Below are positions 3-2,567 of a DNA stretch of 35,212 nt, in pieces; positions within the stretch are counted from its first letter, which is position 1, and each line of letters begins with the position of its first letter. Where the stretch lies: contig CAZOYD010000037.1 in assembly GCA_964583985.1 (NCBI GenBank), positions 1 to 35,212 of the forward strand. The letters run 5' to 3'. The position numbers and the translations under genes are program-made. Below the pieces are notes generated by a model. That model saw only the letters and a list, made by a program, of their open reading frames with translations, had not been told where the DNA came from and searched no databases. This DNA comes from an uncultured archaeon. Its GTDB lineage: Archaea > Asgardarchaeota > Lokiarchaeia > Sigyniarchaeales > SOKP01.

Positions 3-176
3 GAATTATATGATCTCTTTAAAGTACTCTTTGTGGAAACAAATCCCGGACCTATTAAATACGCTGCTGAAAAAATGGGAATCATGAATAAAAGAATGCG
101 ATTACCGTTAACTCCTCCTTTAAATGAAAATCAAGAAAAAATCAATCGCGTTTTACAGAAACAAAATTTAATCTAA
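3..176 (+). CDS. dapA: 4-hydroxy-tetrahydrodipicolinate synthase, 3' end (truncated by window edge)
   Basis: Manual translation ELYDLFKVLFVETNPGPIKYAAEKMGIMNKRMRLPLTP...; the LF.ETNP.P.K and RLPL motifs are typical of the DapA C-terminus, and it lies directly upstream of dapB. Confidence 0.9.
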   Translation, partial: ELYDLFKVLFVETNPGPIKYAAEKMGIMNKRMRLPLTPPLNENQEKINRVLQKQNLI

Positions 177-202
177 TGAAATTTCAAAAAAATGTGATAA
201 TT

Positions 203-1024
203 ATGATAAAACTACTAATTTTAGGTCCATCTGGTTCGATGGGGAAATTAATCAGTCAACTTGCATTAGAGGATGAAAGTATTGAGGTAGTTGCTGCTTG
301 CGATATGTCGAATAAAGGTGAATCTTTAGGTTTTGTTGCTAATGCATTTGATAAAAATAATATTATTATCACGGATGTAAATCAACTTGATGATGTTATT
401 GATGAAGTAAAACCTGATGTTGTTGTTGATTTTACAATTGCAAGTGCAACGGAAAAGAATTGCATGATTTGCGTTAATAAGGGTCTAAGATGTGTCATAG
501 GAACAACAGCCTTATCTCCCTCTTTTTTAATTGAATTTGAAGATTCAGTAAAGAAACATGAAGCTCCAGCAGTTATATCTCCAAATATGGCTACAGGCAT
601 GAATGTAATTTTCAAAATGGCATCAATTTTATCACAATACTTATCTGATTGGGACATTGAAATAATAGAAGCTCATCATCATCGGAAGGCTGATGTGCCT
701 TCAGGAACAGCGTTAACAATCGCCAAAGAAATATGTGCTACTCTTGGGAGTGATCCAGAGGAAACTCTAAAATTCGGACGTTCATTTGGACCAAACAAAC
801 GAAAAATTGGAGCTAAGAACGAAATTGGTGTGCATGCTATTCGGGGGGGAGATATTATTGGAGATCACACCGTATTATACGCCGGTTCAGGAGAGCGAAT
901 TGAACTGAAGCACCAAGCGCATAGCAGAATGTGTTTTGCGGAAGGGGCAATTAAAGCAATAAAATTTATTGCCTTAGCTAAGGAAAATAAAATTTATGCC
1001 ACAGATGAAGTTTTGGGAATTTAG
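203..1024 (+). CDS. dapB: 4-hydroxy-tetrahydrodipicolinate reductase
   Basis: GPSGSMG nucleotide-binding loop, VDFT, IGTT and EAHHHRKADVPSGTA motifs. Start placed at ATG 203 after GTGA; the track start at 176 is in frame. Confidence 0.95.
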   Translation: MIKLLILGPSGSMGKLISQLALEDESIEVVAACDMSNKGESLGFVANAFDKNNIIITDVNQLDDVIDEVKPDVVVDFTIASATEKNCMICVNKGLRCVIGTTALSPSFLIEFEDSVKKHEAPAVISPNMATGMNVIFKMASILSQYLSDWDIEIIEAHHHRKADVPSGTALTIAKEICATLGSDPEETLKFGRSFGPNKRKIGAKNEIGVHAIRGGDIIGDHTVLYAGSGERIELKHQAHSRMCFAEGAIKAIKFIALAKENKIYATDEVLGI

Positions 1025-1065
1025 CTCTCTCCTAGCTTACAAAGAAGAAAGATAAAATTACAAAA

Positions 1066-1140
1066 ACCATCAGTGCAGATCAGTATTATCATCAATCTAT
1101 AATGGATACAGATTTCATAATGCCAACACTTCATCGAGAT
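1066..1140 (-). ncRNA. Box C/D methylation-guide sRNA (candidate)
   Basis: Minus strand reads C box CGATGA (1136-1131), 12-nt guide, D' ATGA (1118-1115), hairpin AATCTGTA/TATAGATT, C' TGATGA (1094-1089), guide TAATACTGATCTGCA, D box CTGA (1073-1070). TTTATTAA lies about 25 nt upstream and a T-rich tract follows. Confidence 0.8.
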
Positions 1141-1253
1141 TAATAAAGGGTATCCAAGCCTTAATAAACTCATGTTTTTATAATTCTATCTTAAAGAATA
1201 ATAGTATTTCAAAAATAAATTACTTTTGCTAATGTTAAATTAAAAAAATGAGT

Positions 1254-2567
1254 TTATTTTAAATGATCTGGAATGATTTGACGTGCAATTAAATCATCAA
1301 AACTTTCTGCTTCCCTGATAGTATAAGTTTTTCCTTTATTTATCAGAATTTCAGCTGCACGCGTGCGTGAATTATAATTTGAGCTCATCATGAATCCATA
1401 TGCTCCCGTGTCAAGAATAGCAAGATAATGGTTTTCCTTTAATTTAAAAAATTCACGATCTTTTCCAAGAACGTCCCCTGATTCACAAATTGGACCAACT
1501 ATATCATAAGTCAATATTTCATTTTCATTTTGATTTTCACATTTTATTATATGATGATATGAACCATATAATATTGGTCTAATGAGCGTATTAAATCCCG
1601 CATTTAACCCTGCGAACCATTTGTAGCCGTTATATTTAATTGTATTAATCTGTGCTAAAATAATGCTTGCTTCTGCTATTAAATACCTACCCGGTTCTAT
1701 TTTAAATTGAGGGATTCCTAAATTCTTTTTTTCTACTACATTTTTAAACTTTTTTACTACCAGATTGACATAAACTTTTAGATTTAGTGGATCGTCTTTA
1801 GGATCATATGGAATTCCCAAACCTCCTCCAAAATCAATGAATTCGAATTTTAAGTCAAGATTATCCTTTATTTCCATAATAATTGCGAGAAATTTATCGA
1901 CCGCTTTTTCAAAATCAAGAGGATTGATTATTCCAGAACCAATGTGAATGTGAATTCCAAATTTCATAAAACCAAGATTTTTTGCCTTGCTGTAAGCTTC
2001 GATAACTTGATTATCTAAAATCCCAAATTTTATGTTTTTACCAGCCGTAATTGTATGAGAATGATGTCCTGCTCCAAATTCAGGATTTATTCGAAAGGAA
2101 ATTAATTCTTTTTCTTTTCCTAATTCATCAGCGATTTTCACAAAGCGATCTAATTGGCTTAAACTATCCAAATTCACTGAAATATTATGTTCAAGGGCAA
2201 ATTTAAAATCCTCGTCAGTGAACATGTTGCCAGTGAACAATATTTTATCAGGAGATATTCCCACTTTTAGACAAGTTCTTACTTCTCCTAAAGAGGTGCA
2301 ATCAAAACTAGCGCCTTCGGATTTTAAAATCCTTATAATAGCTAGGTTTGAATTAGCTTTTACCGCATAATGAATTTCATTGTTCTCGTATTCAGAATTA
2401 ATTGCATTCTTCAATTTATTATATCTATTTCTAATCATTTGTTCATTATAGACATAAAGTGGAGTTCCATACTGGTTTGCTAAGTTTATTGTATTAACAT
2501 CAGCAAAATATAAAATTCCATCTCGATATTCTAAATCTTTATTTTTTAGCCACTCTTCGTAATTCAT
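1254..2567 (-). CDS. lysA: Diaminopimelate decarboxylase
   Basis: GTPLYVY, YAVKANSN (PLP lysine), HIHIGS, DFGGGLG, EPGR, GPICESGD and GAYG motifs. Confidence 0.95.
   Translation of the reverse strand: MNYEEWLKNKDLEYRDGILYFADVNTINLANQYGTPLYVYNEQMIRNRYNKLKNAINSEYENNEIHYAVKANSNLAIIRILKSEGASFDCTSLGEVRTCLKVGISPDKILFTGNMFTDEDFKFALEHNISVNLDSLSQLDRFVKIADELGKEKELISFRINPEFGAGHHSHTITAGKNIKFGILDNQVIEAYSKAKNLGFMKFGIHIHIGSGIINPLDFEKAVDKFLAIIMEIKDNLDLKFEFIDFGGGLGIPYDPKDDPLNLKVYVNLVVKKFKNVVEKKNLGIPQFKIEPGRYLIAEASIILAQINTIKYNGYKWFAGLNAGFNTLIRPILYGSYHHIIKCENQNENEILTYDIVGPICESGDVLGKDREFFKLKENHYLAILDTGAYGFMMSSNYNSRTRAAEILINKGKTYTIREAESFDDLIARQIIPDHLK

Follow-up and report, generated by a model that had tools for sequence, protein, structure and literature searches.

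The Locus and Its Boxes

The window analysed here, a stretch of 35,212 nt from the genome of an uncultured Lokiarchaeial archaeon, carries near its beginning dapB and a lysA-type decarboxylase gene, the latter preceded by dapF. The interval between the two holds, on the strand of lysA, what we regard from its sequence as a true guide RNA of the box C/D class, whose predicted job is ordinary. The features of the locus are listed below, those of the RNA in its own 5' to 3' direction.

176-1024, plus strand: dapB, flanking gene
1254-2567, minus strand: lysA-type decarboxylase gene, flanking gene
1210-1226, minus strand: A/T-rich block and candidate promoter element, AAAGTAATTTATTTTTG, lying about 26 nt before the 5' arm
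1176-1192, minus strand: 5' arm of the A/U-rich outer stem, AAGAUAGAAUUAUAAAA, 17 bp, pairing with 1049-1065 (98% of alignment cells paired, 36 homologues)
1136-1171, minus strand: 5' hairpin with a stem of 12-13 bp and a conserved 9-nt loop, CUUGGAUAC (1150-1158)
1128-1134, minus strand: box C, AUGAAGU, a variant of the RUGAAGA type; AUGAAG is nearly invariant
1119-1127, minus strand: D' spacer, GUUGGCAUU, 9 nt, with a conserved GGC core and variable flanks
1115-1118, minus strand: box D', AUGA, invariant in the alignment
1094-1114, minus strand: internal stem-loop between D' and C', AAUCU...AGAUU, 21 nt with a 5-bp stem; the loop length varies by 17-40 nt
1086-1092, minus strand: box C', AUGAUAA, conserved as AUGAWAA or AUGAUGA
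1074-1085, minus strand: D guide, UACUGAUCUGCA, a 12-nt spacer in which the C at window position 1078 is N+5 and ACUGAUCUGC is nearly invariant
1070-1073, minus strand: box D, CUGA, invariant in 36 of 36 aligned homologues
1049-1065, minus strand: 3' arm of the outer stem, UUUUGUAAUUUUAUCUU; UAUAAUUUUAUCU is nearly invariant, and the G at 1061 of this genome gives a U.G pair

All four boxes fall on the minus strand between positions 1134 and 1070, in the correct order C, D', C', D. An earlier note on this DNA had described this order between dapB and lysA, together with a hairpin inserted between D' and C', and both are borne out, the hairpin being the stem-loop at 1094-1114. Box C is non-canonical, with A and not U at position 5, and the GA dinucleotides of boxes C and D are invariant. 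A UGAAGA variant of box C also occurs in published Pyrobaculum sRNAs (PMC4644070). The core from C to D measures 65 nt, and a U-rich tail follows 3' of box D. A pattern with the boxes in this order finds one match in the window and none in 100 dinucleotide shuffles; a looser version has a single match in the whole 3.8-Mb genome, which is the locus itself, and its reversed control has none. The guide RNA is previously unannotated. Rfam and ARAGORN returned nothing on the locus at normal or gathering thresholds, with just sub-threshold snoRNA-like matches from Rfam, and no description of box C/D guide RNAs from Lokiarchaeia turned up in the literature that we searched.

The genome (G000; 31.7% G+C) also encodes the expected protein partners. 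The genes for Nop5 (C1:125608-126279) and fibrillarin (C1:126410-127075) are adjacent and form a nop5-fibrillarin operon, and two genes belong to the L7Ae family.

The D Guide and Its Predicted 16S rRNA Target

The genome has a single 16S rRNA gene (C19:43116-44604, minus strand). The earlier note had read the D guide as complementary to a helix-34 segment of 16S rRNA and had asked for a complement of at least 10 nt in the organism's own gene; that gene carries the predicted complement, GCAGGUCAGUAU, at 1154-1165, with 12 bp of which one is a G.U. Complementarity begins at position 2 upstream of box D, the spacer pairing with 16S positions 1154-1164, while the twelfth pair joins A1086, the last base of box C', to U1165. 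The N+5 rule then designates a helix-34 nucleotide, G1157, which is the first of the two Gs in CAGGUC, through a Watson-Crick C-G pair, in agreement with the G of GCAG singled out beforehand by the same rule. In our own alignment G1157 corresponds to E. coli A1197.

The duplex between guide and 16S rRNA reaches about -20 kcal/mol against -12.7 for the runner-up site, and is by far the best anywhere in the 16S sequence. With random or permuted guides, and with the organism's own 16S, a relative's 23S and the detectable tRNAs as targets, a 12-nt match in this fixed register (at most one G.U) arises by chance with a probability of about 0.003, and a 10-nt match with one of about 0.04. The target stretch, GGCAGGUCAGUAUGCCCC, is identical across 13 16S genes of the family, and covariation between guide and target therefore cannot occur. 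The G.U at N+6, which adjoins the predicted methylation site, is likewise invariant; the guide variants of one genus (g5), U9 to A or C, simply make a mismatch. Guide and target together predict that the RNA directs 2'-O-methylation of G1157 in the decoding region of 16S rRNA.

The D' Spacer

Archaeal box C/D sRNPs use spacers of 12 nt in both halves; here nearly all homologues combine a C'-D spacer of 12 nt with a C-D' spacer of 9 nt. The 23S rRNA gene is absent from the assembly, and the 23S sequences of three relatives (G099, G008 and G080) were used instead. No target of at least 9 bp for the D' spacer was found in 16S rRNA, in these 23S sequences or among the detectable tRNAs; its rRNA matches span 6-8 bp, and the best leads are no better than chance. 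Two candidates were rejected. The 5' end of 23S rRNA, ACGCCAAUAC, forms 8 bp with the spacer of this genome, but the G099 spacer mismatches the G099 23S and the pairing partly uses box C; the 16S site at 1282, GCCGACAU, gives 8 bp with two G.U, at chance level. A weak lead is the 16S motif UGCCA(N)C, located about 80 nt 5' of the D target near 1077-1083; it offers 7 bp and accommodates the R at the third spacer position. A mismatch arises in this organism, where N is C, and two relatives mismatch at N+5 or N+7. A role as a normal methylation guide is improbable for the 9-nt D' spacer.

As an aside, the 3' end of the G099 23S (L058, ..AAGUGUGUGGCAUU) resembles the stretch of box C and D' spacer AAGUGUUGGCAUU (window 1119-1131). 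Both are complementary to the 23S 5' end mentioned above, which may be coincidence.

A Conserved Three-Helix Fold

Archaeal box C/D sRNAs are small, 50-70 nt long with a short terminal stem. Here the boxes, and with them the 65-nt core, are embedded in a larger structure. The 144-nt RNA at 1049-1192 folds with -37.4 kcal/mol (z-score -4.1), a stability equalled by none of 200 shuffles, and the conserved fold spans 138-156 nt among homologues. In the structure that we defined by hand, pairing extends to 97.7% of the cells; sliding the partners by one to three columns lowers this to 44-56%. Double changes that preserve pairing are seen in three of its helices. In the 5' hairpin the pair 33/47 changes from A-U to G-C in 14 of 36 sequences, and the extended part of its stem differs in sequence between genera with pairing kept; in the stem between D' and C' the pair 86/114 changes from U-A to C-G. 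Box C position 7 and the base immediately before box D change together (from U-A to A-U in 12 sequences out of 36), and their pair coincides with stem II of a C/D k-turn. As judged from their sequences, boxes C and D can form such a k-turn, and C' and D' another, which a short stem closes.

In the outer stem, transitions affect nine sites. Seven are A-to-G changes giving G.U and one turns a G.U into G-C, while the ninth disrupts its pair and sits at the helix's inner end; there is no double compensatory change, compensation being by wobble-compatible changes only. These changes in the arms are suggestive, rather than decisive, in favour of an RNA helix over a repeat acting at the DNA level. 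No short terminal stem joins the bases directly beside boxes C and D. Since the strand before box C is taken up by the hairpin and the strand after box D by the outer stem, a three-way junction at the k-turn would replace the short terminal stem that is usual in such RNAs. A junction of this kind may resemble the 'k-junction' described by Lilley's group. The long terminal stem, the 5' hairpin, the internal hairpin and the one shortened spacer make this large fold unusual for an archaeal sRNA. In addition, the D' spacer shows partial complementarity to the D guide in the latter's 3' half, and this pairing, if it forms, might give a closed conformation that could compete with guide function.

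We consider it likely, on the combined evidence of boxes, guide and fold, that positions 1049-1192 of the minus strand specify a box C/D guide RNA that targets helix 34 of 16S rRNA from within a conserved three-helix structure. In the mechanism that we propose, L7Ae would bind both k-turns, and Nop5 and fibrillarin would assemble on the L7Ae-bound k-turns. The guide would pair with nascent 16S rRNA, and fibrillarin would 2'-O-methylate G1157, which pairs with the fifth guide base counted back from box D. The outer stem and the 5' hairpin would hold boxes C and D together in lieu of a short terminal stem, giving the three-way junction, and they may also mark the RNA for processing.

The extent of this fold bears on how transcription is envisaged. 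A TATA-like element upstream of the boxes and a T-rich end had been pointed out before, and both are present, but they are the two arms of the 17-bp inverted repeat, which hardly varies across the family. The supposed TATA element belongs to a flanking RNA stem and is probably not a promoter. The 5' hairpin begins 2-4 nt past the arm, and a promoter inside the arm could not produce the hairpin; transcription is therefore likely to start at or before the 5' arm. It would perhaps proceed from the A/T-rich block at 1210-1226, at whose distance from the arm (about 26 nt) the alignment of homologues has a semi-conserved AAAAATAAAAAT block, or else result from read-through from lysA.

Two further ideas about parts of the structure were examined. 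As an antisense element, the hairpin loop CUUGGAUAC gave matches of only 6-7 bp, no better than many other sites. The motif AATTTTATCT was rejected as a general sRNA or terminator signal, since elsewhere in the genome it is not linked to C/D-like sequences.

Distribution and Genomic Context

BLAST retrieves the element from about 75 of 100 genomes of the family at 73-86% identity. A covariance model (R1) built from 36 copies extends this to 103 of 130 family genomes and 11 of the 13 genera, and finds nothing in 19 genomes of the order's three other families. About 80% of the family genomes conserve the boxes together with the D guide, and the loop between D' and C' varies in both length and sequence. 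The persistence of the boxes in relatives, which had been proposed earlier as a check on the RNA, is thus observed. A strict pattern run over 399 Asgard genomes matches 84 of the 133 in the window's family against 3 of the 266 others (reversed control, 0).

The element lies between dapB and lysA at 22 of 29 loci; the remaining seven are without one or both genes. Neither gene occurs within 1.5 kb of two copies (L003 of genome G090 and L007 of genome G070) that are complete, arms included, which means that the unit has moved at least on occasion. A few genomes also hold partial extra copies (L052:1480-1751 in G099, L013:2560-2800 in G035, and L062/L063 in G027). These consist of the 3' half, that is D', hairpin, C', D guide, D box and 3' arm, and their distance from the main copy is 1.2-4 kb. 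Mutated D boxes were found in G027 alone, where the two copies read CUAA and CUGU.

Some GenBank titles place the element in Hod-, Hermod-, Thor- and Odinarchaeota. We do not follow these titles: GTDB-based placement puts the genomes concerned in the window's own family, and the titles look mislabelled. The contigs are L097, L109, L123, L151, L152 and L159, from one batch of GenBank MAGs (JBHL...); JBHLPZ010000296, for instance, equals G041:C296 and belongs to the same genus. A broader spread of the architecture among Asgard archaea is for this reason not claimed.

Comparison with Known Guides

The predicted target has counterparts in eukaryotes. Gm1428, guided in yeast by snR56, is equivalent to Gm1490 of human U25 and to Gm1431 in Arabidopsis, in helix 34 near the A site (PMC2794176, PMC8817022); the corresponding sites are Gm1506 in Dictyostelium and Gm1674 in Plasmodium. 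In snR56/SNORD25 (Rfam RF01188/RF00054, clan CL00049) the guide reads ...CAGACCUGUa followed by CUGA, in the register of the Lokiarchaeial guide and directed at the same rRNA nucleotide. The earlier note had named this link, correctly: the snR56 consensus guide, ACACAGACCUGUa followed by CUGA, aligns in register, its N+5 pointing to the first G of ACAGGUCUGU, and the papers cited above equate Gm1428 with Gm1490. The alignment itself is sub-threshold and not significant (12.4 bits with the snR56 covariance model, against a gathering score of 54), and SNORD25 was not listed in the Rfam search of the locus at E up to 10. The snR56 guide moreover precedes box D', whereas the Lokiarchaeial guide precedes box D. 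Beyond guide and boxes we detect no sequence homology between the two RNAs, and the comparison does not show common descent.

The same nucleotide is also addressed in other archaea. In Pyrobaculum calidifontis, sR32 (Dennis et al. 2015, PMC4644070, additional file 1) has the D guide UACUGACCUGCG in a 12-nt spacer by box D. Its register is identical to that of the Lokiarchaeial guide, the predicted target being again the first G of CAGGUC in 16S helix 34, and the pairing regions differ only by a C for U at N+6. In other respects sR32 is unlike the RNA described here: it is compact (49 nt), with a 3-nt linker between D' and C' and a 12-nt D' guide, CAACUCUGGGGU, it has neither flanking stem nor 5' hairpin, and no similarity is apparent outside the guide.

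We scanned one genome per prokaryotic species for a C-type box, the guide and a D-type box, which returned the Lokiarchaeial family, a handful of chance bacterial matches and compact archaeal sRNAs. Sixteen TACK or Jordarchaeal sRNAs carry the guide AACUGACCUGC-N-CUGA to the same 16S site. Compact sRNAs with the helix-34 guide occur in Thermoprotei, Thermofilaceae, Caldivirga, Pyrobaculum and Geothermarchaeota, as well as in Nitrosocaldus, Nitrososphaerota, Bathyarchaeia and Jordarchaeum. Unlike the Lokiarchaeial RNA, these compact sRNAs mostly hold the helix-34 guide in the D' position, have a second guide of 12-13 nt and a terminal stem set directly against boxes C and D, and have no 5' hairpin. 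Several of those from TACK MAGs (L119, L128, L136, L142, L150, L155, L166 and others) share a common second (D) guide, ...(G/A)UACCUCC(A/U)CUG.

An sRNA of another Lokiarchaeial family (genome G282) combines the same helix-34 guide with an internal hairpin between D' and C' and a long terminal stem of 11 bp. It differs from the RNA in the window in having the guide in the D' position, a stem that abuts boxes C and D, a second guide of 12-13 nt, and no 5' hairpin. This sRNA supports the view that the outer stem of our element is a terminal stem rather than a pair of transposon ends.

The distribution of the guide argues that the helix-34 target is ancient and not special to Asgard archaea. The earlier note had stressed that the site is also methylated in eukaryotes, which stands according to the papers cited; what does not stand is any reading of the site as a speciality of Asgards and eukaryotes, as it is also targeted in TACK archaea. 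The presence of the guide there argues for an old modification rather than a novelty of these two groups.

A more far-reaching scenario would derive the Lokiarchaeial and TACK guides and SNORD25/snR56 from one ancestor, the Lokiarchaeial RNA having been rebuilt into a eukaryote-like long form in which a k-junction-like three-way junction stands in for the terminal stem, and acting also on tRNA-Ala by means of the U-for-C change. We judge this composite scenario improbable. Were a single ancestral guide indeed inherited by eukaryotes, the helix-34 Gm would predate eukaryogenesis.

Alternative Interpretations

Other readings of the locus have to be weighed against a 16S methylation guide. One keeps the guide RNA but directs it, mainly or additionally, at the D-arm of tRNA-Ala(UGC), with methylation at G10 and one guide serving both RNAs. 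The tRNA in question lies about 130 nt after the 3' end of the 16S gene (G000:C19:42886-42986, minus strand; L001:1271-1371). ARAGORN calls it Lys(CTT); in view of G3.U70 and of a UGC, conserved in relatives, before the 3' strand of the anticodon stem, it is probably a tRNA-Ala(UGC) whose non-canonical intron varies in sequence. ARAGORN or Rfam detect no more than about 24 tRNAs in this genome. The guide pairs with positions 7-17 of this tRNA (GUAGAUCAGUA) over 11 bp with one G.U, at -17.1 kcal/mol compared with -19.6 for 16S, and GUAGAUCAG is invariant in 30 family loci. Every member of the family has U at N+6 even though C would pair better with 16S rRNA, and a C there would drop the tRNA match to -12.4 kcal/mol. 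A dual target could explain why U and not C is kept, because the guide has invariant bases, G and U, at the two positions where the targets differ and can pair with either. Against this, many other archaea, and snR56 too, use the same register with C for U, and there the rRNA is the only fit; U at N+6 is present in two TACK sRNAs as well, and the A/T-richness of the genome can explain the U alone. Mesophilic archaea are not known to methylate the ribose of tRNA position 10. On balance we find a tRNA target unlikely, though worth keeping in mind. Still less probable, in our estimate, is an RNA that acts as a folding chaperone on helix 34 of nascent 16S rRNA without methylating it, or a guide in decay. 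Such a role would accommodate the G.U beside the target nucleotide, the non-canonical box C, the 9-nt D' spacer with its self-complementarity to the D guide, and the one genome with broken D boxes, but it sits poorly with a Watson-Crick C-G pair at N+5, a D spacer of exactly 12 nt and an intact D box in all 36 aligned homologues, and the strong conservation of guide and boxes fits an active guide.

The two remaining readings deny that the locus is a guide RNA at all. A MITE-like mobile element, or an inverted-repeat switch at the DNA level, might merely resemble an sRNA, and the 17-bp terminal inverted repeats, the seven of 29 loci without one or both of dapB and lysA, and the partial extra copies near the main one in a few genomes are in keeping with this. 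There is also a precedent in P. calidifontis, whose MITE-like sRNA elements with flanking inverted repeats occur as 15 dispersed copies, mostly orphan guides (Lui et al. 2018, PMC6009581), and share with the Lokiarchaeial locus a C/D-like core between inverted repeats. Our RNA differs from them in being single-copy, mostly syntenic and equipped with a conserved rRNA guide. Each genome has one full copy, 22 of the 29 loci keep the position between dapB and lysA, the arm motif is found nowhere else in the genome, no transposase lies nearby, and the changes in the arms are mostly wobble-compatible, as expected of an RNA helix. A mobile or DNA-level element is therefore very unlikely. We give hardly any credence to a small protein gene. 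An open reading frame of 50 codons does exist in this genome (1021-1173, minus strand), but it is not open from end to end in any of the 36 homologues, where indels and lengths are not multiples of three, and its start codon is not conserved; because no homologue keeps the frame through the element, we do not consider it a gene.

Implications and rRNA Gene Organization

Returning to the 16S guide, its predicted function is that of an ordinary methylation guide, and its architecture is both unusual and family-specific. It provides a concrete pair of guide and target in the closest archaeal relatives of eukaryotes. The target is a nucleotide of the decoding centre whose methylation is conserved in yeast, human, plants, Dictyostelium and Plasmodium. 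The large fold, for its part, could show how the longer, single-guide snoRNAs of eukaryotic style arose.

Two observations concern the rRNA genes of the relatives. In two genomes (G008:C27 and G080:C35) a single contig carries the 16S and 23S genes at a distance of 50-70 kb, and the rRNA genes are thus unlinked. In several 16S sequences (e.g., those of G019, G005, G027, G053 and G006) the alignment to the archaeal SSU model is interrupted near model positions 496/517 and 828, which suggests insertions or introns, or contig ends.
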